From NCBI GenBank assembly GCA_046757665.1, contig JBHHYO010000064.1:1-16094 (forward strand): a stretch of DNA of 16,094 bases, read 5' to 3'. The notes beneath the pieces were generated by a model. It ran no database searches, had not been told where the DNA came from, and was given only the letters and a program-made list of their open reading frames with translations. The first letter of the stretch is position 1. Each line of letters opens with the position of its first letter. The position numbers and the translations under genes are program-made. Source of the stretch: Nitrospinales bacterium. GTDB taxonomy: Bacteria > Nitrospinota > Nitrospinia > Nitrospinales > JAJDAT01. This document shows, one piece after another, positions 1 through 11,154 of this stretch.

Positions 1-448
1 CGGACAGGAGGCTGATGTATTCGTCGAAATCGCCGATGGCGCCGACGATTTTTTCCATGGCGTCCCAGGCTTCGCGGCCGCGGTACACGCGGTTTTTGCC
101 GAGGTCGTAAAGCAGGGTTTCGCCCTGGTCGCGGATGAACACGCCTTGCGGCCTGCCGAAAACGTCCAGGGTGTCGAGGCGCAGGGAGTCGTCGCCCATG
201 ACCAGCAGGGCCTGCTTGAAGGAGTGCGACTGTTTATTTTTGGTGACGGTGGCGCGGACGAACGACTTGATGTCGATCAGCCCGGCGCGGCGGGCGACCA
301 GGGTTTGAAACAAAAATTCCGGGGCGATGGTTTCCTGGCTCAGGTGCGGGGCGGTATAGGCCGGCGGGCGCGCGGACGGGGTTTGGCACGCGGCCAGCCA
401 CAAGACCAAGAGGCACAGCAAACAGAGCCGCCGGGAACCGGCCTGCAT
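1..448 (-). CDS. Lipoprotein, LolB/LolA-fold-like (DUF4292-like); 3' end runs off the window
   Basis: Not in the ORF track; translated by hand from ATG 448: MQAGSRRLCLLCLLVLWLAAC-QTPSARPP...KSFVRATVTKNKQSHSFKQALLVMGDDSLRLDTLDVFGRPQGVFIRDQGETLLYDLGKNRVYRG... There is a canonical lipobox LAAC (Cys at 386-388), and the 'LRLD.LD.FG.P' beta-strand pattern resembles LolB-like proteins. An in-frame GTG at 514 is an alternative start. The family call is by recognition only. Confidence 0.7.
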   Translation of the reverse strand, partial: MQAGSRRLCLLCLLVLWLAACQTPSARPPAYTAPHLSQETIAPEFLFQTLVARRAGLIDIKSFVRATVTKNKQSHSFKQALLVMGDDSLRLDTLDVFGRPQGVFIRDQGETLLYDLGKNRVYRGREAWDAMEKIVGAIGDFDEYISLLS

Positions 449-521
449 AACGGGTGCGCGCCGGGCGGCATCGGGTTCGGATTGGGGTTTGAGGATTCCT
501 GGGGCTCGCGGCACGTGGGAG

Positions 522-2843
522 TCAGAAGCTGGTTTTCAGGAGGTTGTTGAGTTTGTTGATTTTCTCTTCCAGGGTTTTGGGGTCGGGCAGTTCGACGTCA
601 TTCTCTTCCTGGCTTTTTTTGCGGGTCAGGGACAGGCTGGTTTTCCAGGCTCTGCCGGCCTCTTTGTAATTTTTGAGCGCAAACTGGATGTCGCCCAGGT
701 GGTTATAAATCACGGCGTCGGGGGAGGTGTAGATCATGGCTTTTTTAATTTCGGCCAGCGCCCGCCTGGTCTCGCCCTTGCGGAAATAAATCCACCCCAG
801 GCTATCCAGAAAATAGCCGTTTTGCGGTTGCACGGCGAGGGCCTTTTCCAGATGGTCGACGGCCTGGTCCAACTGTTCTCCTTTGATGGCGTACAGGTAC
901 CCGATGAAGTTATGGGCGTTGGAGTGCCGGGAGTCAATCTCGAGCACCTTGTGCATGGTCTCGATCGCTTCGTCCACCCGGCCAACCTGCTCCAGAAGCG
1001 CACCCAGCTCGAAATAATAGGCGGGGTTGTCCTGGTCGAGTTCGAGGGCCTTGCGGATATACTGAATCGCCCGGTCCGGCTGTTTCTGCGCCATGTATGC
1101 CAGGGAAAGCGAACGGTAAATCCGGTCGTTGTCGGGATAAAGGCGCGCGGCGGTTTGCAGAACCTTGATGGCTTCGCCGGTTTCTTCGTTCAGGTGGTAC
1201 ATGCGCGCCAGCTGGAGCAGAATCTCCACGGATTCCGGTTCCTGCTTGAGCAGGACATTCAGTTCATCGATCGCTTTTTTATAGTTTTGGAAAATCTCAT
1301 AAATTCTTGCGATGAGGAGGCGGACGTTCTTTTTTTCCTCCTGGGCCAGGACCAGGCGGAAATCTTCCAGGGCGGCCGTGTAGCGGGTCTGTTCAAAGAA
1401 GATCATCCCCATTTTCAGGTAGAGGCTGGAATCCCCCGGCAACGGGCCGGCGAATTCCTCGGTTGAGGGGATATCCTGTTCGCCGCTGTTTATCTGTTTC
1501 AACTGCTGGAACTGTTCCCGGAAGCGGGTGTTTTCCGGGTCGAGTTTCATGAGGATGTTGTATTCTTCCGCGGCTTCCTTGAAATTGCCCGTTTTTTCCA
1601 GGACCCATGCGAGAAGGATTCTGGAATCGCGCAAGCTGGGTCTGAGGGCGAGGGTTTTTTTAAGAGCTTGCTCGGCCTTCGCGTACTGGCTGTTCAAGGC
1701 GTAGTTGCGGCCCAGCAAATGAAACGCCAGGGAATTGGTGGGGTCCACCAGGGTTGCCTTGTTCAGGGTTTTTTCGGCTTTCGCGTGGTTTTTTTCCTTG
1801 CCGTAGATGAGTCCGGACAGCAGTAAGGCGCGGGTGTTGTGTGGCGAGGCGGGAATTTTCTCGAGATAGGCAAGCGCCTCCCGGTTTTCGCCGCGCGCGG
1901 CGAGGACCTCCGCCAGAAGGAGCATGAGTTTGGCGTTTTCCGGAAACCGTTCGAGGCCGTTTCGGCAAACGGCGATTACTTGATCGGTTTTTCCGTCGCG
2001 CAGATAAAGATGCGCCAGTTTGGGGTAGAACTTTTCGGTGGCGGGGTCATGGGCAATGACCCGGCGGTAATGCCCGGCGGCGTTGCCGAAATTTCCCACC
2101 CGCTCCTCTCTGAGGGCCAGGAGGAAATTGTAGTACGCTTCGGGGTCCTTGTGTTGTGGGGGGCTCTGGTTCTGCTGTAACGCCAGCGCTTTTTTCAAAT
2201 ACTGCTCGCTACGTTCGCGGATTCGCCGGGCGGCGGCCTGCGGGTTGTCCGCCTGGCGGTAGGAGCCGGCAATGCCGTTGGCCGGGGTTTTCTTGTAAGC
2301 CACCATCCGGACGGGGGCCGGTTTATAGACCACTTTTTTTACGATGTACGTTCCGGAGGGGTAGGTGGTTCCGAGTTGATAGCTGGAGTCGGCCGACGCA
2401 CAGCCGATGGCGAAGCTCAACAAGCTCAAGGCCGCCATGGTGTGCCGGACGCGGGGTTTGCGGGCGCGGCGGCGCGTGTTTTTCGCGGACGCGGGCCGGG
2501 GCGCCGGGGTTTCCCGGCCGGCGCCGGACGTTGTGCCGCCTTCACGAAACGTCAGGCGGCTCACCAGGGTTTCTCCGGCGCGGCGGTTGAGTTCGCTGAT
2601 GATATCTTTTTCCAGGCTCTCGAAAGCCGCGACCCAGCTTTTGTCCGCCACCCGGACGTGCAGGGTCCGCGACGCCAGCCGGTCGATCCGGGACACCGCC
2701 GCCAGCCGGCGGCCAACGGTGAGGGTCCAGTGAAAGTTCAATTGATCGAGGGCGCGGGGGGCGTCAATTTTCGCCAGGGATCGGGACAGCAGTTCACTCA
2801 TGTTGACCCAGTTGCCGGTTTGTTTCGGGAGTCGTTCCATCAT
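522..2843 (-). CDS. Fusion of an N-terminal DciA/DUF721-like domain, an internal lipoprotein signal (AIG-C148) and a long TPR array (LbcA/PA4667-like)
   Basis: 773-aa ORF. Residues ~11-101 fit the DUF721 pattern (W...VG..LA......L....LHV.V....W......L...II..LN...G...V..L.F). Residues 121-148 are basic then hydrophobic and end in a lipobox. Residues ~235-750 are tandem TPRs ending with AHNFIGY.YA...LDSLGWIYFRKG...IYNHLGDI. Confidence 0.85.
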   Translation of the reverse strand: MMERLPKQTGNWVNMSELLSRSLAKIDAPRALDQLNFHWTLTVGRRLAAVSRIDRLASRTLHVRVADKSWVAAFESLEKDIISELNRRAGETLVSRLTFREGGTTSGAGRETPAPRPASAKNTRRRARKPRVRHTMAALSLLSFAIGCASADSSYQLGTTYPSGTYIVKKVVYKPAPVRMVAYKKTPANGIAGSYRQADNPQAAARRIRERSEQYLKKALALQQNQSPPQHKDPEAYYNFLLALREERVGNFGNAAGHYRRVIAHDPATEKFYPKLAHLYLRDGKTDQVIAVCRNGLERFPENAKLMLLLAEVLAARGENREALAYLEKIPASPHNTRALLLSGLIYGKEKNHAKAEKTLNKATLVDPTNSLAFHLLGRNYALNSQYAKAEQALKKTLALRPSLRDSRILLAWVLEKTGNFKEAAEEYNILMKLDPENTRFREQFQQLKQINSGEQDIPSTEEFAGPLPGDSSLYLKMGMIFFEQTRYTAALEDFRLVLAQEEKKNVRLLIARIYEIFQNYKKAIDELNVLLKQEPESVEILLQLARMYHLNEETGEAIKVLQTAARLYPDNDRIYRSLSLAYMAQKQPDRAIQYIRKALELDQDNPAYYFELGALLEQVGRVDEAIETMHKVLEIDSRHSNAHNFIGYLYAIKGEQLDQAVDHLEKALAVQPQNGYFLDSLGWIYFRKGETRRALAEIKKAMIYTSPDAVIYNHLGDIQFALKNYKEAGRAWKTSLSLTRKKSQEENDVELPDPKTLEEKINKLNNLLKTSF

Positions 2844-2933
2844 TCAATTCATGGGTTGCCGGTGACCGGTAAAACCGGAGACCGCAGGCGTTGGGCGAAA
2901 CTTTTTCCGCCGGGATGTCGTTTGCCTTGTGAA

Positions 2934-2966
2934 AATTATTTTAGCCACATTGAGGGGCAAGTTAAA
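2934..2966 (-). promoter_or_regulatory. Putative sigma70-type promoter for the DciA-TPR/lipoprotein genes
   Basis: AT-rich patch in the recN-TPR spacer. The minus strand reads TTAACT-16nt-TAAAAT, or alternatively TTGCCC-16nt-TAATTT. Confidence 0.35.
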
Positions 2967-3005
2967 GTTTTATTTTGGCTTGGCGGCGGATGCGCGGCTC
3001 GGCGG

Positions 3006-4703
3006 TCAGCCGGGTTTGACCATTTCGCGGGCGTGTTGGCGCGTGGTTTCGGTGATTTTCTCCCCGCCGGACATGCGGGCGATTTCCTCGATGCGGTCCT
3101 CGAGGCTCAGTTCGCGGATGGAGGTGCGGGTTCTTTTGCCTTCCACTTGCTTGTGGATGGAGAAATGGGTGGCGGCCATTCCGGCGATCTGCGGCAGGTG
3201 GGTGACGCAGAAGACCTGTCGGCGCGCGGCGATTTGCTTGAGCCGGACGCCGACTTTTTCCGCCACCTTGCCGCCGATGCCGCTGTCCACTTCATCGAAG
3301 ATCAGCACGGGCACGGGGTCCTGCTCGTTCAAGATGGTTTTCAAGGCCAGCATGACGCGGGACAATTCGCCCCCGGAGGCGATTTTGGCCAGCGGGCGCA
3401 GGTCTTCGCCGGGGTTGGGCGAGAAGAGAAACTCCATGACGCCCAGGCCGTCGGGCGTCACCCGCACCGTGTCGCCGCGGAAGGTGACGAAGCCGTCGGG
3501 GTCGGGCTCGTAGTTGAAGCGGGCGCCGAAGCGGGTTTTGGGCATGTTCAATTCGCGCAATTCCTTTTCGGCGCTCTTTTGCAGTCTGGCGGCGGCTTTT
3601 TCCCTTTTTTCGGCAAGCGCCACCGCCTGTTTGGCCAGCGTTTGCCGCCGCCGCGCCAGGTCCGCCGTCAAGGCCTCGACCCTTTCCTGATTCGAGGACA
3701 GGGCCTGCAACTCGGCGGCAATCTGCTCGCGGGACTCCAGGACGGCCGGGATGTCGCCGCCGTACTTGCGCTTGAGGGTATTGATTTCCGCCAGGCGGTC
3801 GTCGATTTCCTCCAGCCGCTCGGGTTGAAAAACGTTGTCCCGGCCGTAAGCGCGAAGGGTTTCCACGAGGTCTTCCACCTCGTAGGACAGCGACTGCGCC
3901 CGGTCGGCGATGGTTTGCAAATCGGGGTCGAGTTGCGCGGGCTGTTTCAGTTCGTGATCCACTTGCCCCAGTTGTTCACGAACGGCGCCTTCATTGTCCA
4001 TGAGCAGGTTGAGGGCACGTTGCAGGGCCTGGTGAGTTTTTTCCGCATTCAGCAACCGGGTTTGCTCGGTCCTCAGGGCGTCTTCCTCGGATGGGGAAAG
4101 GTTGGCCCGGTCGATCTCGTCGAGCTGGAAATTCAGCAGGTCCTCGCGTTGTCGGCGGTCGCGCTCGCGGGTCAGCAGGGATTGGTATTCGCGGTCCAGG
4201 TCGCGGTAATCGGCAAACTCGCGCTCGAAGCGTTCTTTCTCCGGCACGAGGCCGCCGTACAAATCGAGGATGCCGAGGTGGTTTTCGGGGTGCAGGAGGG
4301 TTTGATGGTCGTGCTGGCCGTGGATGTCCACCAGGCGGTTGCCGATTGCCGCCAGGGCGCCGACGGTGATGTTGCCGCCGTTCAGGAAGGCGCGGTTTTT
4401 CTCGCTGAGCGACACTTGGCGTTTGATGATCAGTTGGCCGTCCTCGACCTCGATGCCCAGTTGGCGGACTTGCTCCAGGATACCGGGGTCGTCCACGTAA
4501 AACAGCGCCTCGACGGCGGCGGTCTGCCGTCCGGTGCGGATGTTGTCAGTGTCCGCCCGCCCGCCCAGGGCGAGCGTCAAGGCGTCGATGAGGATGGACT
4601 TGCCGGCGCCGGTTTCGCCGGTGAGGACGTTGAATCCGGGTCGAAACTGGACGGCGAGGTTTTCGATGACGGCGAAATTGGTGATTTTCAGTTCCTTGAG
4701 CAT
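3006..4703 (-). CDS. recN: DNA repair protein RecN (SMC-like ATPase)
   Basis: 565 aa. N-terminal MLKELKITNFAVIE and Walker A TGETGAGKS, HGQHDHQ Q-loop, coiled coil, signature ASGGELSR, Walker B LIFDEVDSGIGG, and VTHLPQIA H-loop. Confidence 0.98.
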   Translation of the reverse strand: MLKELKITNFAVIENLAVQFRPGFNVLTGETGAGKSILIDALTLALGGRADTDNIRTGRQTAAVEALFYVDDPGILEQVRQLGIEVEDGQLIIKRQVSLSEKNRAFLNGGNITVGALAAIGNRLVDIHGQHDHQTLLHPENHLGILDLYGGLVPEKERFEREFADYRDLDREYQSLLTRERDRRQREDLLNFQLDEIDRANLSPSEEDALRTEQTRLLNAEKTHQALQRALNLLMDNEGAVREQLGQVDHELKQPAQLDPDLQTIADRAQSLSYEVEDLVETLRAYGRDNVFQPERLEEIDDRLAEINTLKRKYGGDIPAVLESREQIAAELQALSSNQERVEALTADLARRRQTLAKQAVALAEKREKAAARLQKSAEKELRELNMPKTRFGARFNYEPDPDGFVTFRGDTVRVTPDGLGVMEFLFSPNPGEDLRPLAKIASGGELSRVMLALKTILNEQDPVPVLIFDEVDSGIGGKVAEKVGVRLKQIAARRQVFCVTHLPQIAGMAATHFSIHKQVEGKRTRTSIRELSLEDRIEEIARMSGGEKITETTRQHAREMVKPG

Positions 4704-4767: not shown

Positions 4768-5484
4768 TCAAAATTTTTTCAACAACTGTCTGGCCCGGCG
4801 GCGTTGTTCCCTCAGCTTCGGCGTATCGGGAAACTTTTGCACCGCCCGCAGATAGGCCCGGATGGTGGAACGCGCCGCCTTGGCGTTGCCGGCGGCGTCA
4901 TAAGATTCCGCCAAGAAAAAATAGTTGTCGGCAAATGTCGGTCCGTAACGTACGGCCTGTTTCAGATGCCGGATCGATTTTTTGAAACTGCGGCCCAGTA
5001 GCGCCGGCAGGGCGGCATAATATTTCCCCAAGGCCCGGTGGGCGCCTCCCTGCTCGACGGAAGGGTCGAGGCGGGCGGCTTTTTCCATATTCTTCCGGAA
5101 GGTGGAAATCAGCGACAAACTGCCGAAGACGCCTTGAAGCCGGCCCAGCTTGCCCATGCACAGGGCCTTGAAGTAATAGCCCGCCGCGGCGCGCTTGTTG
5201 AGAGCCAGGGCGCGCTCGGCGCTGTCGCGGCACCGGGTGAAATACTTTTTCTTCTCGCGGTCGGTGACAGCGCGGTTGCCCAGCGAGGCGTACGTGCGCG
5301 CCAGCCGCCACAGCAGGGCGTCCGATTTTTTTTCGGGACTTTGCCGGAGCAGACGCTCGATTTTTTTGTAATCGGCAACGGTGTTGCCCTGACGATGCAA
5401 CCGGTCGATGCTCTCGAGCGGCGCCGCCGACGCCAGGCGCGCCAGGAACAGCCCTGCTAACAGCAAAACAATTTTTCGCCGCAT
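4768..5484 (-). CDS. Secreted TPR/helical-repeat protein (TatT/RMDN-like)
   Basis: 238 aa. Sec signal peptide MRRKIVLLLAGLFLARLASA-A, then TPR-like helices (LLWRLARTY, ERALALN, GYYFKALCMGK, LDP..EQGGAHRALGKYY..LP). Confidence 0.75.
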   Translation of the reverse strand: MRRKIVLLLAGLFLARLASAAPLESIDRLHRQGNTVADYKKIERLLRQSPEKKSDALLWRLARTYASLGNRAVTDREKKKYFTRCRDSAERALALNKRAAAGYYFKALCMGKLGRLQGVFGSLSLISTFRKNMEKAARLDPSVEQGGAHRALGKYYAALPALLGRSFKKSIRHLKQAVRYGPTFADNYFFLAESYDAAGNAKAARSTIRAYLRAVQKFPDTPKLREQRRRARQLLKKF

Positions 5485-5563: not shown

Positions 5564-5664
5564 CCGGTCAGGCGCGGCGGCTCAGGATGGAAACGGGCGT
5601 GTCGGGGCTCCGCGCTTTCGATTTCCTCTGGATTCCGCAAGGCGGATTTTGTATTCTTGCAGTT

Positions 5665-6282
5665 ATGCTTGCATTGAAAAACATATTCCGAGTTGCGCTT
5701 CCGGTCTTTTTTCTGTTATTCAGCGGCCCGGCCCTGTCAGCAAACCCCGGGCCGCAGGAAACGGTGAAATCCCTTTTGGAGGTCATTAAAAAAATTAAGA
5801 ACGGCAACGACCTGTCCGCCGAGCAAAAAAAGATCAATCAAAAATATTCGGCGCTGGCGATAACCAAGCTGAATATCCCCGGGGTAGGACGCAGAACCCT
5901 GGGAAAATACTGGAAGCAACGAACGCCCCAGGAACAACGGGATTTCCTGGCCTTGTTGAGCAAATTGTTTCAGGAAGTGGCTTTCCCCAACTCGGGAAAG
6001 TTTTTTGCCGACTTGCAGATCACCTACGGGAAAAGCCGGATTAAAAAAGACCGGGCAATCGTTCCCGTAACCGTGGTCCACAAAGATGAGGGCGAGGTGG
6101 ACATCGATTTCTCTCTCGCCAAAGTCAACGGCAAATGGCTTGTCGTCGAGGTCGTACTCGACGGCGTCAGTATGCGCAATAACCTGCGCTCCCAGTTTTA
6201 CAAGGTCATCCACAAAAACAGTTATCAGGAACTGATCCGGCGGATGAACAAGAAACTGAAAAAAGTCGAGGCGGAGGGATGA
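5665..6282 (+). CDS. MlaC/Ttg2D-family periplasmic lipid-binding (ABC substrate-binding) protein
   Basis: Starting at ATG 5665 gives a signal peptide (MLALKNIFRVALPVFFLLFSGPALS-A). Family motifs: LGKYWKQRTPQEQRDF..LF, IDFSL.KVNGKWLVVEVVLDGVSMRNNLRSQF.KVI....YQELIRRM. The ORF-track start at 5587 is probably too long. Confidence 0.88.
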   Translation: MLALKNIFRVALPVFFLLFSGPALSANPGPQETVKSLLEVIKKIKNGNDLSAEQKKINQKYSALAITKLNIPGVGRRTLGKYWKQRTPQEQRDFLALLSKLFQEVAFPNSGKFFADLQITYGKSRIKKDRAIVPVTVVHKDEGEVDIDFSLAKVNGKWLVVEVVLDGVSMRNNLRSQFYKVIHKNSYQELIRRMNKKLKKVEAEG

Positions 6283-6366: not shown

Positions 6367-6849
6367 TCAGTCGTTGTTTTCGCGGAGCATGGCCACGGCA
6401 TATGCGGCGATGCCTTCCTCCCGTCCGACGAAGCCGAGCGTTTCGGTCGTTGTGGCCTTGACGTTAACCTGGTCGGCGGGGATATCCAGGGCGGCGGCGA
6501 TATTGGTTTTCATTTGATCGATAAAGGGAGCCAGGCGAGGCTTTTGGGCAACGACAATCGCATCGGTATTGACGATCTGGAACCGGCGTTGCCGGCAGAT
6601 GTCGCCGACTTTTTTCAACAACAACAAGCTGGAAACGTTTTTCCATTTGGGGTCGGAATCGGGGAAATGCCGGCCCAAATCGCCCGCTCCGCAGGCGCCC
6701 AAAACGGCATCGCAAATGGCGTGGAGCAGGGCGTCGGCGTCGGAGTGTCCATCGAGTCCGGCGACATGGGGAATTTCCACGCCGCCGAGGACCAGCTTTC
6801 TTTCTTTCACCAGACGGTGAACGTCATAACCGTTGCCGATTCGGAACAT
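6367..6849 (-). CDS. ispF: 2-C-methyl-D-erythritol 2,4-cyclodiphosphate synthase
   Basis: 160 aa. RIGNGYDVHRL, GHSDADALLHAICDAVLGA, GDLGRHFPD, NVKATTTETLGFVGREEGIAA. Confidence 0.98.
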   Translation of the reverse strand: MFRIGNGYDVHRLVKERKLVLGGVEIPHVAGLDGHSDADALLHAICDAVLGACGAGDLGRHFPDSDPKWKNVSSLLLLKKVGDICRQRRFQIVNTDAIVVAQKPRLAPFIDQMKTNIAAALDIPADQVNVKATTTETLGFVGREEGIAAYAVAMLRENND

Positions 6850-6937
6850 GGGGAGTTTGTCTCAAAAAATGGAAAGTGGAAAACCGGGCGCCGCCCCGCA
6901 AACCTGAAAAACTCCGGGTCCTTGCGGCCGGCGTTCG

Positions 6938-8089
6938 TCAATAAGCCACGGTGATGCGTTTCCGGGCTTCGTTTCTGGCCCAGCGGTCGGCGGCGAGCAC
7001 ATCGTCGAGTTCCTGCACGGGAACGCTTTGGTGGCAACGCATGGTGGCGCGGATGACTTCGGGAATTTCCTTGAAGGGAATTTGTTCCTCCAGAAAAGCC
7101 TCCACCGCCACTTCATTGGCGGCATTCAATACCGCCGGCATGGTTTGACCGGCTTCCAGGGCCTCCATGGCCAGCCGCAGGCAGGGAAACTTTTCGAAAT
7201 CGGGTTTCTCGAAGTTGAGTTGCGAACACCCGGCAAAATCCAGCGACGGAAGCTCCATTGCAAACCGGTCGGGATAAGTCAGGGCGTAGGCAATGGGGAC
7301 CCGCATGTCCGGAATGCCCAATTGGGCGATTATTGAGGTATCGACGAATTCAATCATCGAATGCACGATGCTTTGCGGATGCACGATGATCTCGACCGGG
7401 ACGTCCAGGCCGAACAGCCATTTCGCCTCGATGTATTCGAGGCCCTTGTTCATGAGGGTGGCCGAATCGATGGTGATCTTGCTTCCCATTTTCCAGTTCG
7501 GGTGATTGAGCGCTTCCCGGACGGTGACGTGTTCCATTTTTTCCTTGGACCAGGTGCGGAACGGTCCGCCCGACGCCGTGAGGATGATTTTTTTTATGCG
7601 TTCTTTTTTTTCACCGTTCAATGCCTGGAAAATGGCGCTGTGTTCGCTGTCGATGGGCACGATGCCCGCCCCATTGCGCGCCGCCTTCAACACCAGTTCT
7701 CCGGCGATCACCAGCGTCTCCTTGTTGGCAAGGGCGACATGCTTGCCGGCCCGCAGGGCGGCAAACGTGGGCACCAGGCCGGCTCCGCCGACAATGCCGG
7801 AAACCACTGTGTCCGCTTCTTCCAGCACCGCCACTTTTGTGGAGCCTTCCTCGCCGCTGACCAGTTCCACGGGATGCCCGTTGAGCACTTCCCGTAGCGG
7901 CTTGATTTTGGCGGGATCGAAAATAGACGCCACTTTGGGCTTGAATTTTCTGACTTGCCGGGCAAACAACTCGACATTGCTCCCGGCGGAGAGACCCACG
8001 ATCTCGAACTGTTCGGGATATCTATCGACAACGTCAAGGGTGTTGACGCCGATGGAACCGGTGGACCCCAGGATGGAAATTTTTTTCAT
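6938..8089 (-). CDS. dxr: 1-deoxy-D-xylulose 5-phosphate reductoisomerase
   Basis: 383 aa. ILGSTGSIG, LANKETLV, PIDSEHSAIFQ, LTASGGPFR, HPNWKMGSKITIDSATLMNKGLE, NAANEVAV. GAGGAG Shine-Dalgarno upstream. Confidence 0.99.
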   Translation of the reverse strand: MKKISILGSTGSIGVNTLDVVDRYPEQFEIVGLSAGSNVELFARQVRKFKPKVASIFDPAKIKPLREVLNGHPVELVSGEEGSTKVAVLEEADTVVSGIVGGAGLVPTFAALRAGKHVALANKETLVIAGELVLKAARNGAGIVPIDSEHSAIFQALNGEKKERIKKIILTASGGPFRTWSKEKMEHVTVREALNHPNWKMGSKITIDSATLMNKGLEYIEAKWLFGLDVPVEIIVHPQSIVHSMIEFVDTSIIAQLGIPDMRVPIAYALTYPDRFAMELPSLDFAGCSQLNFEKPDFEKFPCLRLAMEALEAGQTMPAVLNAANEVAVEAFLEEQIPFKEIPEVIRATMRCHQSVPVQELDDVLAADRWARNEARKRITVAY

Positions 8090-8101
8090 ATGCCTGCTCC
8101 C

Positions 8102-8896
8102 TCAAGGGGAAAGGACACCTGTGTAATAACCATAAAAAGCCGGTCCGGCAAACAACAAACCGTCGATGCGGTCCAAGATCCCGCCATGACCGGGAATCAA
8201 ACTGCCGGAGTCCTTGGCGCGCGCGCTTCTTTTCAACAGTGACTCGGCCAAGTCGCCAAATTGTCCGATCATACCGCAAATGAGGGCCATAATCAAACAA
8301 TGGGCAAGGGCCACGTCCGGCAAAAACCAGAGTTGGGCGATCCATCCGCCGGCGAGGCTTCCCGTCAAGCCCGCCACGGCCCCTTCCACGGTTTTTTTCG
8401 GGCTGATGACCGGGGCTAACGGATGTCTGCCAAAGTTCCGGCCGACATAGTAGGCGGCCGTATCGCCCAGCCAGACAACAAGCAACACAAAAAACACATA
8501 ATATTGCCCCTCCGCCAGATTGCGGATTAAAACAAAGGAGCCCAACAAGCCCGCAACATAAAAAATGCCCAAAAAAGTATAGGCGATTTGATCAAACGCT
8601 GTGCGGATATCCTTTTCCAGGACAAACCAGGCTAGAAAAAGAAGAACCGTTGCCGCCAAAATCCATTGCGCGAGAAACTGACCGCCGAAATAAAAGCACA
8701 GGGTCAGCAGAAAACTCAATACAAATCCCATCACGGGAAATCCCGTGATGCCGATCTCGGAGATCAGGGCAAAATACTCATAAATGCCCAGCAATACGGC
8801 GGCTAAAACTACAAGGTAAAAAACAACAGGCGAGCCGAAATAGATGACGGCTATTAAAATCGGCAGGAGTAGGACGCTACTTAAAACTCGCTTCAA
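8102..8896 (-). CDS. cdsA: Phosphatidate cytidylyltransferase
   Basis: 264 aa, polytopic membrane protein. DTAAYYVGRNFGRHPLAPVISPKKTVEG and GDLAESLLKRSARAKDSGSLIPGHGGILDRIDG. TTG start with GAGG 8 nt upstream; canonical position between uppS and dxr. Confidence 0.97.
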   Translation of the reverse strand: MKRVLSSVLLLPILIAVIYFGSPVVFYLVVLAAVLLGIYEYFALISEIGITGFPVMGFVLSFLLTLCFYFGGQFLAQWILAATVLLFLAWFVLEKDIRTAFDQIAYTFLGIFYVAGLLGSFVLIRNLAEGQYYVFFVLLVVWLGDTAAYYVGRNFGRHPLAPVISPKKTVEGAVAGLTGSLAGGWIAQLWFLPDVALAHCLIMALICGMIGQFGDLAESLLKRSARAKDSGSLIPGHGGILDRIDGLLFAGPAFYGYYTGVLSP

Positions 8897-9002
8897 AAGG
8901 CCGGCCTCGCGCGAACGGTTTGGGGTTTGTGGTTCACGATTGAAATTTGAGGATAGGAGTCTTCGCGGATATGATCCTGCCGCAGTCCACGGGTTTGCCC
9001 AT

Positions 9003-9758
9003 TTAAGCCTTGAAAATCTGCTCCTGGAGCATACCGAAGCGCCTTTCGCGTTTTTGAAAGTCGATGATGGCCATCAATAAATCTTCCTCGGTGAAATCCG
9101 GCCACAGCACATTGGTATAATGCAACTCCGTATAAGCAATCTGGTACAGGAGAAAATTGCTGATTCGCATTTCCCCGCTCGTTCGTATCAGCAGATCGAG
9201 ATTGGGTAGACCCCGGGTATCGAGAAAGGTTTCAAACAAATCGGAATCGATGTCCCCCGGCAACAGGTGTCCGTCGAGCACCTTTTGCGCGATTTTTTTG
9301 ACCGCATCAAGGATTTCCTGCTGGCCGCCATAACCCAGGGCCAAGGTCAGAACCAAACCATCATTGGTTTGCGTGTATTCCCTGGCGCGGCGGATAAGTT
9401 TTCGAATATCTTCCGGAAACCCTTCGATCCGGCCAATGGTGTTGAAACGGATATTCTCCCGTTTCATGCGGTCGAGTTCTTTTTTCAGATACTGGTCCAG
9501 AATCTTCAGCAAGGCCTTGATTTCCGCCGCCGGACGATTCCAGTTCTCACCGGAAAACGAATACAGGGTGAGCGCTTCGACATTAAGCTTGCGGCACAAG
9601 GTAACGATCCGATCCACAGTCTTGACGCCGGCCCGGTGGCCATGAACCCGGGGGAGCAAATTTTTTTTCGCCCAGCGGCCGTTGCCGTCCATGATGATGG
9701 CAATATGCCTGGGTAGCCTGTTCCTGTCGATTTTCTCTAGTAACGCAACATTTGCCAA
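9003..9758 (-). CDS. uppS: Undecaprenyl diphosphate synthase (cis-isoprenyl transferase)
   Basis: 251 aa. PRHIAIIMDGNGRWA, FSGENWNRP, DLLIRTSGEMRISNFLLYQIAYTEL, RERRFG. TTG start with GGGAG upstream. Confidence 0.98.
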   Translation of the reverse strand: MANVALLEKIDRNRLPRHIAIIMDGNGRWAKKNLLPRVHGHRAGVKTVDRIVTLCRKLNVEALTLYSFSGENWNRPAAEIKALLKILDQYLKKELDRMKRENIRFNTIGRIEGFPEDIRKLIRRAREYTQTNDGLVLTLALGYGGQQEILDAVKKIAQKVLDGHLLPGDIDSDLFETFLDTRGLPNLDLLIRTSGEMRISNFLLYQIAYTELHYTNVLWPDFTEEDLLMAIIDFQKRERRFGMLQEQIFKA

Positions 9759-9830
9759 GAAAATTTCTCCCGGGGAAAGAGTTGACGGGTTGGAAACCGG
9801 GTGGACTTTATCGAGCCTGCCGGGAAAGGG

Positions 9831-10385
9831 TTAAGTTTCCCGGATACTTGCTTCTTTTGCCTGGGCGATCTGGCTAACGAGATTGATATGTTCGTCGGTG
9901 ATTTTTTGCAGTTTTTCCTGGCCCTTTCGGCAGTCATCCTGTGGAACTTTTTCTTTCTCCAACTTCTTTATCTTGTCATTGAATTCCCGGCGAACATTGC
10001 GGATCGCCACCTTGCATTCTTCTTCATACTTTTTGAGAATTTTGATGATCTGCTCTCGCCTCTCACCCGTAAGAAGCGGTATATTGAGACGGATAACATT
10101 GCCGTCGTTTGCCGGATTCAAACCCAGCGTGGACGACTGAATGGCTTTTTCAATGGCCTTGAGCAAAGAGCTCTCCCACGGCTGGATAGTGATCGTGCTA
10201 CTGTCGGGCACTCCGAGAGTTGCCACCTGGGAGAGCGGCGTCGGCGTTCCGTAATAATCAACTTTCAACCCATCCAGCAAGGCGAGCGATGCACGACCCG
10301 TGCTCAGCTTGCCCAGCTCCTGTTTAAGGTGCTCGATTGAGTGGTTCATCATGATTCCGGATTCTTCCAGCAACTTGTCAATCAT
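9831..10385 (-). CDS. frr: Ribosome recycling factor
   Basis: [56 protein letters not shown]. Start placed at ATG 10385, which overlaps the pyrH stop and gives 184 aa. Confidence 0.95.
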
Positions 10386-11154
10386 CGGTGAGCCCCACAG
10401 TTGTTCCCAGTTTTTCTCCAAGTAAAACCTTTCGGATACTGCCCCGTTGCCTGACGTTGAAAATTACCATCGGCATTTTGTTGTCCATACAAAGAGACAC
10501 GGAAGTCGAATCCATCACCTTGAGGCCCATTTTCAACACATCCAGGTAAGACAAGCGGTCGAATTTTACGGCCTTCTTGTCCTTCATGGGGTCGGAGGAA
10601 AAAATCCCATCCACCTTCGTCGCCTTGAAAATCACCTGCGCATCAATTTCCATGGCGCGCAGGGCGGCGGCGGTATCCGTCGTGAAATAAGGGTTGCCCG
10701 TACCCGCGGCGAATATCACCACACGGCCTTTCTCCAGGTGTCGAATGGCCTTTCGGCGGATGTACGGCTCGGCAAGCTCATGGATTTCGAGAGCCGTCTG
10801 CACCCGCGTGGAAATGCCCGCGCTCTCCAGAGCGTGTTGCAGGGCCAGAGCGTTGATCACGGTGGCAAGCATTCCCATGTAGTCCGCCGCAACCCGCTCC
10901 ATGCCAAGGCTACTGGCGGTGGCGCCCCGAAAAATGTTGCCGCCGCCGATGACGATGGCAATTTCCACACCCAGGGCTTTTGCCTCATGGATATCCGCGG
11001 CAATATTTGCGAGAGCCTTTTGATCAATCCCGAAACCCCCGTCACGATCGGCGAGGCTTTCTCCTCCCAGTTTCAGCAGAACCCTTTTAAAAACAGCCTG
11101 TGGCCTGGCTGTTTGGTCATCCTTTACCGATTTCGAATCGTGCAAAATTTCCAA
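10378..11154 (-). CDS. pyrH: Uridylate kinase (start uncertain, see findings)
   Basis: [67 protein letters not shown]. The only in-frame starts upstream of the conserved core are TTGs inside tsf. Confidence 0.95.

Follow-up and report, generated by a model that had tools for sequence, protein, structure and literature searches.

We describe an open reading frame (ORF) in which the helicase-loader domain DciA (DUF721) is fused, through an internal lipoprotein-type signal, to a large tetratricopeptide-repeat (TPR) protein. The ORF lies on a stretch of 16,094 nucleotides from a Nitrospinales bacterium (assembly GCA_046757665.1, contig JBHHYO010000064.1), hereafter the window, which is a whole contig of a 160-contig metagenome-assembled genome (MAG) that is 97.6% complete. 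The Nitrospinales are an order of nitrite-oxidising marine bacteria, and DciA is the commonest helicase loader of bacteria, with a mechanism that is only now being resolved. We confirm the fusion, which is found across the whole order, and the split forms of some relatives show that it is not obligatory. On balance, we lean towards a precursor from which cleavage at Cys148 would yield a TPR lipoprotein and a DciA tethered to the membrane. The parts of the ORF, numbered by window position and by amino acid (aa), are as follows.

522..2843, minus strand: whole fused ORF (precursor), a single open frame of 773 codons plus stop.
2547..2795, minus strand: DciA (DUF721) KH-like domain, aa 17–99, from Pfam PF05258, AlphaFold2 (AF2) and Foldseek.
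2439..2546, minus strand: linker, aa 100–135, predicted to be disordered (predicted local distance difference test, pLDDT, <50 from aa 105).
2442–2483, minus strand: basic stretch K121–H134 within the linker, the putative positively charged n-region of the internal signal.
2403..2438, minus strand: predicted hydrophobic h-region and lipobox, M136–G147 (A-I-G ahead of the Cys), with a 14-residue uncharged run.
2400..2402, minus strand: Cys148, an invariant column, the putative lipidated +1 Cys, with a predicted LspA site at G147|C148.
525..2399, minus strand: predicted exported part, aa 149–773, with a TPR superhelix at aa ∼201–772.

The frame starts with ATG-ATG and an in-frame TGA lies directly 5′ of it (2846–2844), so that it has no upstream extension. 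An earlier sequence-only reading of this DNA had described an uninterrupted 773-codon frame without a stop in the linker, an N-terminal DUF721/DciA domain, a basic stretch, a hydrophobic segment and a Cys at 2402–2400. All of these were found as described. The full-length AF2 model (26 orthologues, mean pLDDT 80.4) has three parts, a folded N-terminal domain (aa ∼10–101), a low-confidence stretch (aa 105–209) that holds one helix (133–149), and a confident superhelix (201–772). The TPR superhelix (∼570 aa) has pLDDT values mostly >90, and confidence is low up to about aa 200. Many Pfam TPR families matched over aa ∼215–750, and the NCBIfam scan of the fused protein returned sub-threshold TPR families only.

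The locus was surveyed in 40 relatives and the genome itself, and it was read in the 39 genomes that hold it; G011 (86% complete) and G020 (79%) have no orthologue and are excluded from the 39. DciA and the TPR part share a single frame in 26 of these 39 Nitrospinales genomes and are two adjacent genes in the other 13, so that the architecture proposed earlier recurs in relatives, far more often than chance would give, and the two parts are not always separate genes. By family, the fused form was present in 6/6 genomes of f1 (the family of the window copy), 15/15 of f3, 3/3 of f4 and 2/15 of f2, and all 13 split genomes belong to f2. Several fused genomes of f3 are closed single-contig genomes. 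Across the four families, the fused proteins share 36–44% identity with the window protein. When 120 genomes of the phylum were scanned with a DciA profile, one match each was found in 109 (55 of the 57 high-quality genomes); 42 of these 109 matches lie in open frames of 740–854 aa, and 41 of the 42 are from Nitrospinales. A profile of the N-terminal part, searched against 1.84 billion cluster representatives, found 14 of 739–772 aa among the best 150 matches.

Could the fusion be an assembly or sequencing artefact, a stop or frameshift missed in a MAG? The window is a 16-kb contig of a MAG of 160 contigs, as such an artefact would have it. The identical single frame, however, recurs in 25 other genomes, closed ones included, and in the 14 long cluster representatives. 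Two Logan per-run assemblies (X1 and X2; two samples, one study) span positions 2000–3100, and no indel was detected in either, although both may stem from the source samples and are only partly independent. Run X2 has C at position 2157 where the window has T, a single substitution within the ORF that is presumably a strain variant.

The linker also evolves as coding sequence. For 39 within-genus pairs from five genera, the ratio of nonsynonymous to synonymous substitution (dN/dS, Nei–Gojobori) of the stretch between the DciA domain and the Cys was 0.16–0.69 in the 37 pairs giving a value. The corresponding ranges were 0.00–0.54 for the DciA domain and 0.03–0.15 for the TPR part (35 of the 39 pairs giving a value), and length differences among the compared pairs were whole codons throughout. 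As these ratios show, the linker is under purifying selection and is translated. Recurrence in 25 genomes, indel-free assemblies and a coding-like linker together rule out an artefact, the chance of which we regard as negligible.

The N-terminal domain is a DciA with a KH-like fold. PF05258 matched aa 17–99 with 34.7 bits (E 2.2e-8) against a cut-off of 24, and in a six-frame search of the genome DciA, at 38.9 bits, was the sole match above cut-off; the search proposed earlier for another dciA thus revealed none. In a model of the N-terminal 173 aa (42 rows), AF2 gave pLDDT values of 90–97 over aa 30–100. The top Foldseek match of this model was 7ykm, the DciA DUF721 domain of Deinococcus radiodurans (E 8.2e-5, target-normalised TM-score 0.76, root-mean-square deviation 1.2 A, 67 columns), followed by chains C and D of 8a3v, the Vibrio cholerae DciA in complex with DnaB, and then by RbfA and DnaA domain I. 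The PDB sequence search with the DciA part alone returned chance-level UBL4A matches only. The domain thus shares the KH-like fold with these stand-alone DciAs; in contrast to a small soluble DciA, its C-terminus runs on into a signal peptide and 625 further residues.

The genome has a single DnaB (452 aa, TIGR00665 at 565.6 bits). Complex prediction with two copies of DnaB 150–452 and DciA 1–132 gave a score of 0.40 versus 0.01 for the best control, with contact agreement of at least 40% and partner pLDDT of at least 58 in the DnaB–DciA runs. Of 80 solved complexes, 58 passed the mark used, as did 2 of 110 mismatched pairs, but only 7 of the 80 passed with a score of ≤0.60. A DnaB contact is predicted with weak support, and because a DnaB–DciA complex has already been solved, the pass may show likeness to it only.

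In the available part of the V. cholerae work, the C-terminal tail of DciA is disordered and folds to a helix hairpin on the LH-DH module of DnaB (PMC9912922). A tail-helix motif that, by analogy, may be the Nitrospinota equivalent of this DnaB-binding tail was present in 18/26 fused forms, where 3–5 residues separate it from the hydrophobic segment that follows. It was also present in 7 of 8 DciAs of the phylum's other orders (the fused form of G109 included) and absent from all 13 split DciA ORFs. Examples are LKKTIQRIISK and IKDALKRLMVK in stand-alone DciAs of other orders and LKETLTRLAHK in a fused form. Whereas relatives keep this C-terminal helix, the window copy does not match the motif and has an Arg/Lys-rich stretch instead; in its family, f1, the motif is degenerate only. 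DciAs reduced to the KH domain are a recognised group in the accessible parts of two reports (bioRxiv 10.1101/2022.01.24.477630, PMC9912922), and a missing tail helix is therefore compatible with DciA membership.

Two groups of proteins were noticed among the matches to these DciA features. P0034 (2398 aa) has 29 separate matches to positions 36–68 of the DciA N-terminal profile and is apparently a repeat protein of DciA-like helix segments. P0071, P0125, P0143 and P0148 (282–285 aa) are DciAs of another lineage in which this tail-helix motif precedes a zinc ribbon (CxxC...CxxC) and then an additional C-terminal domain of ∼100 aa.

Bacterial lipoprotein signals consist of an n-region, an h-region and a lipobox, and their precursors are processed by Lgt and then by LspA (signal peptidase II); the canonical residue before the lipobox Cys is small (G, A or S). 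The window protein shares with such precursors a basic n-region, a short uncharged h-region and an A-I-G-C lipobox. In contrast to them, its signal is internal and begins ∼120 residues in, after a folded domain of ∼135 aa, and most of its relatives have Asn before the Cys. The Cys itself is present in 26/26 fused, 14/14 split and 7/7 outgroup rows. The uncharged run before it has a median length of 14 residues (13–16) in the 26 fused forms and of 14.5 (13–17) in the 14 split ones, which carry the segment as an ordinary N-terminal signal, so that it was not lengthened to a typical membrane helix after fusion. The genome encodes Lgt (PF01790, 238 bits) and LspA (PF01252, 141 bits) in adjacent genes on contig C42. 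These data support that the hydrophobic segment and the Cys would be the signal peptide of the ancestral lipoprotein.

The residue before the Cys is Gly in 7/7 outgroup rows. Among the 26 fused forms it is Asn in 22, Gly in 3 (the window copy included) and Gln in 1, and among the 14 split forms Ser in 6, Asn in 5, Ala in 2 and Gly in 1. A crude scan of the genome for lipoprotein N-termini (352 candidates), which is noisy and suggestive only, gave G in 71, A in 56, S in 40 and N in 10, with ∼3 of the N cases convincing. Either an unusual lipobox, with Asn ahead of the Cys, may operate in this lineage, or its cleavage may be weakened.

Start codons within the frame were also considered. In the window copy, the only in-frame starts up to 45 codons before the Cys are ATG at −12 (Met136) and TTG at −9. 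As the sequence-only reading had stated, Met136 lacks a Shine-Dalgarno sequence: no AGGAGG-like match of at least 4 bases was found 3–12 nt upstream of it, and TTG −9 is likewise without such a match. At this place P0002, the nearest relative identified (775 aa, 65% identical across the first 260 aa), has the sequence ...APNSLAALILLSFAIGC, without a Met; Met136 is not a conserved start. An in-frame ATG is present at −32/−33 from the Cys in 7/26 fused genes and TTG or GTG at −35 in another 7/26; between −32 and −35, start codons are missing from all four g4 genomes.

To place the origin of the fusion, eight genomes of the phylum's other orders were read at the locus. In six of them dciA lies directly upstream of an orthologous TPR gene (27–36% identity); the matches range from E 3e-66 to 8e-108 for five intact genes, and the gene of G113 is split over two frames. 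The other-order TPR proteins all begin with a lipoprotein-type signal ending in G-C. In G109, dciA and the TPR gene have been fused independently, and its congener G108 keeps two genes; in G046, no TPR orthologue was found in the stretch fetched. Together, these arrangements show that the Nitrospinales fusion arose from two adjacent genes. Because the tail motif stands next to the hydrophobic segment in most fused forms, a whole DciA, tail included, was apparently joined to the h-region of the next gene's signal peptide. The terminal basic residues of DciA would now act as the n-region. The G109 fusion itself (L054, G109:C31, compared with L057 of G108) is a 783-aa frame in which the former stop and the intergenic region are read through; it could be a sequencing error, and that MAG is 83% complete.

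A quick maximum-likelihood tree of the TPR part (46 rows, rooted on the other orders) was built without G113 (gene in two frames), G046 (no orthologue in the stretch) and G095 (contig end). It places the fused state at the base of the Nitrospinales and three split clades of family f2 (g8; g13 and g15; g22 and g3) among the fused genera g14 and g11. At least five state changes are needed on the whole tree, of which four are forced by well-supported branches. The fusion has been split again in at least three lineages, and the break points differ: the stop lies inside the helix motif in g15 and before the motif in g13, and in g3 the DciA ORF ends right after the KH domain, with the two ORFs of three g3 genomes still in the same frame and a single stop between them. 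Such interconversion argues that the fused and split states pass easily into one another and may be nearly equivalent in function.

A second candidate loader gene is resident in the genome, as a check for other dnaC or dnaI genes, proposed by the sequence-only reading, revealed.

G000:C51:8480-9364, plus strand, outside the window (locus L050:1303-2190): DnaC/DnaI-type AAA+ gene, 295 aa, PF01695 at 45 bits with a cut-off of 24.1.

The 295-aa protein has a Cys-rich N-terminus, CxxC...CxC...CxxCxGxG (Zn-ribbon). Its best PDB matches are Aquifex aeolicus DnaC (3ecc, E 1.6e-19) and E. coli DnaC (6qel, 1.7e-11), followed by DnaI (2qgz and 2w58) and then IstB. The neighbouring genes encode GGDEF, GNAT and enoyl-ACP-reductase (FabI-type) proteins, and no transposase or mobile-element genes lie beside it. 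Orthologues were found in 38/41 relatives and in 34/34 high-quality ones (49–61% identity), and the gene is single-copy, with 47–61% identity across the order. In the phylum scan it was present in 5/5 genomes of f1, 4/5 of f4, 19/21 of f3 and 57/70 of f2, and in 0/18 genomes of the phylum's other orders. The PF01695 family search of these orders gave only IstB-like genes (150–250 bits) or weak matches in frames of ∼450–480 aa, which we take to be DnaA cross-matches. Family searches with PF01695 are unspecific (the control matched 14/14 and 11/14 named genomes), and the protein search and frame lengths were relied on. A pseudogene state in genus g3 was considered and rejected, as the apparent internal stops are the natural C-terminal stop and the gene is intact. 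Between the GNAT gene and the AAA+ gene, a lone 94-aa ORF with Flg_bb_rod and Flg_bbr_C motifs was seen at L093:931-1215 (plus strand).

DciA may thus not be the sole loader. According to Brezellec et al. 2016 (PMC5109545), a genome never maintains dciA together with dna[CI], and the arrival of dna[CI] is followed by the loss of dciA. The AAA+ gene resembles the domestication of DnaC/DnaI described there: a resident, vertically conserved PF01695 gene at the base of one order, with mobile-element-free neighbours. In contrast to the replacement of DciA described in the same text, the Nitrospinales keep the DciA domain, fused to the lipoprotein or reduced to the KH domain. Since DciA and a resident PF01695 gene occur together, the Nitrospinales look like an exception to the rule of exclusion; no relevant report of dciA/dna[CI] coexistence was found in the literature searched.

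The sequence-only reading had left a bitopic protein and a polyprotein cut by signal peptidase II side by side. Both stay the leading readings, with cleavage favoured and the bitopic form as its main rival. [quoted passage not shown] The basic stretch and the 14-residue uncharged segment would serve as an internal Sec-type signal, N-in/C-out, and the TPR part would be exported. Lgt would lipidate Cys148 and LspA would cut at G147|C148, yielding the TPR lipoprotein (aa 148–773) and a DciA (aa 1–147) held at the inner membrane by the former signal peptide, from which it might be released later by signal-peptide peptidases. The precursor would have originated when the stop codon of dciA was lost and DciA read into the signal peptide of the next gene. 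Cleavage is favoured because the Cys is invariant and the uncharged segment was kept at signal-peptide length. Evolution probably tolerates this arrangement, and repeatedly switches it on and off, since the cut would restore two proteins and the DnaC/DnaI-type protein may share or take over the loading.

An uncleaved product would be a bitopic inner-membrane protein, in which a cytoplasmic DciA is tied through one transmembrane segment to a periplasmic TPR scaffold. We consider this rather unlikely, and about as much so the extension that the Cys would perhaps be lipidated and that helicase loading, or another DciA activity, would become membrane-located, with a possible coupling to the envelope. 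One argument for a bitopic protein is the residue before the Cys: it is Asn or Gln in 23/26 fused forms and small in 9/14 split ones, as though efficient cleavage had been re-selected only after fission; but Asn is also found in 5/14 split forms, and the window copy has the canonical Gly. The persistence of the fusion across four families at 36–44% identity, and the tail helix kept 3–5 residues from the hydrophobic segment in 18/26 fused forms, also fit a covalent tie, whereas at least three split clades indicate that such a tie is dispensable. Furthermore, with 13–16 residues the uncharged segment does not exceed that of the split forms and would make a rather short stable membrane helix, and an invariant terminal Cys is unneeded for a plain anchor.

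Several points weigh against a cleaved precursor coexisting with a second loader. (i) With Asn or Gln before the Cys in most fused forms, LspA cleavage may be poor. (ii) No precedent for a lipoprotein signal after a folded domain of ∼135 aa was found in the literature searched, and we infer topology, lipidation and cleavage from sequence. (iii) Some of the starts at −32 to −35 have a 4-base AGGA match, and internal initiation is possible in relatives. (iv) The AAA+ protein is below the NCBIfam cut-offs (PRK08116 101/189, DnaC 63/357, DnaI 45/228 and IstB 58/200 bits), so that a loader role is not established by family cut-offs and the protein is a candidate loader. (v) One branch of the tree received both the fusion and the AAA+ gene; this coincidence is a single event and no statistical association.

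From the same observations one might argue that the fusion is an irrelevant read-through and that DciA is decaying or repurposed, its task having been taken over by the DnaC/DnaI-type protein. The AAA+ gene, present across the whole order and not found in the phylum's other orders, would fit such a takeover, as would the published rule of dciA loss once dna[CI] has arrived (PMC5109545) and the state of the tail helix, lost in the window copy, degenerate in its family and absent in 13/13 split DciA ORFs. However, the DciA domain is under purifying selection (the dN/dS range given above), and its presence in 109/120 genomes of the phylum (55/57 high-quality) shows that it is not decaying. We regard this reading as improbable. 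We are just as doubtful that an internal start supplies most of the TPR lipoprotein, with the full-length product minor. Candidate in-frame starts at −32 to −35 exist in 14/26 fused genes, but the four g4 genomes have none there, and the window copy has no plausible internal start, because Met136 lacks a Shine-Dalgarno sequence and a basic n-region and is absent in P0002. Moreover, an internal start cannot supply DciA: as the DciA part lacks a stop codon, all DciA that the cell makes must be the fused precursor.

The identity of the TPR part was less specific than proposed. PDB sequence and Foldseek searches found generic TPR solenoids only. The sequence-only reading had likened it to LbcA/PA4667, which in Pseudomonas aeruginosa partners the protease CtpA and with which it shares the status of a large TPR lipoprotein. 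PA4667 (7rqf_A) matched at E 1e-12 over 157/625 aa, with 24 generic TPR sequences ranked above it, and does not appear in the Foldseek list of chains for the full model. Designed TPRs, OGT and CDC27 match better than this 157-aa similarity, and we abandoned the LbcA/PA4667-type label for want of specific support.

The genes and a possible signal next to the ORF are the following.

2..514, minus strand: downstream lipoprotein gene, cut by the contig end, orthologue of a DUF4292/LolA-like (LolB-like) protein.
2938..2965, minus strand: promoter-like site TTAACT-16-TAAAAT, 5′ of the ORF start (1 site versus 0.9 expected, which is chance level).
3006..4703, minus strand: upstream RecN-type SMC-like ATPase gene, SMC_N at 70.5 bits and AAA_23, named by domain pattern.

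The truncated product of 2..514 has no Pfam match and is 36% identical (E 6e-24) to the product of L018:3790-4575 of a closed relative, which matches DUF4292 (28.8 bits, cut-off 23) and LolA_like. In that closed relative, the Nitrospina TPR orthologue is followed downstream by a LolB-like gene and then by a GHMP-kinase gene, an order that resembles PA4667-lolB-ispE, on which nothing was found in the literature searched. The LolB-like downstream gene makes an envelope role of the TPR lipoprotein plausible. Promoter and terminator scans were at chance level overall, and no promoter site was found within the linker.

Envelope-lipid genes flank the recN-dciA locus on both sides. At 4768–5484 (minus strand) another small TPR protein is encoded, whose N-terminus resembles a signal and which matches TAtT/TPR_19; its gene is divergent from an adjoining MlaC-family gene at 5587–6282 (plus strand). 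The region 6367–11154 (minus strand) holds ispF (YgbB), dxr, cdsA, uppS, frr and pyrH-type genes by Pfam, apparently an ordinary conserved housekeeping cluster.

The DciA–TPR domain pair is already catalogued: in its available part, Blaine et al. 2022 (bioRxiv 10.1101/2022.01.24.477630) report 36 DciA homologues with TPR domains in Nitrospinae and Ca. Rokubacteria and place TPR among domains 'associated with DNA replication'. The words membrane, signal peptide, lipoprotein, periplasm and transmembrane do not occur in the main text of that preprint, and this text does not describe a lipoprotein signal within the chain, a descent from neighbouring genes, later fissions or a DnaC-like gene in the same genomes. 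Neither an internal lipoprotein signal in a DciA fusion nor, among the papers listed, any other link between DciA and a lipoprotein was found in the literature searched. New, as far as that literature goes, are the internal signal, the way it arose and was repeatedly undone, and the presence of a DnaC/DnaI-type gene beside DciA.

The Nitrospinales may be a living intermediate, in which DciA was kept after the arrival of an AAA+ loader and re-used as a membrane-tethered module, an idea to which we give little weight. It is an equally long shot that DciA, made 1:1 with an exported envelope lipoprotein, would by its supply or release couple a replication step to lipoprotein export and envelope growth.

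These data suggest that (i) the Nitrospinales offer a natural case in which the only DciA of the cell would be made within a membrane-crossing precursor, which corrects the published view of the TPR part as a cytoplasmic, replication-associated domain; (ii) this may be the first folded cytoplasmic domain ahead of a lipoprotein signal peptide, and it would be a new kind of Lgt/LspA substrate; and (iii) the apparent exception to the dciA/dna[CI] rule is conserved across a whole order, single-closed-contig genomes included. With fused and split forms interspersed among its close relatives, this lineage may be used as a comparison set for the parts of DciA that are needed beside an AAA+ loader.

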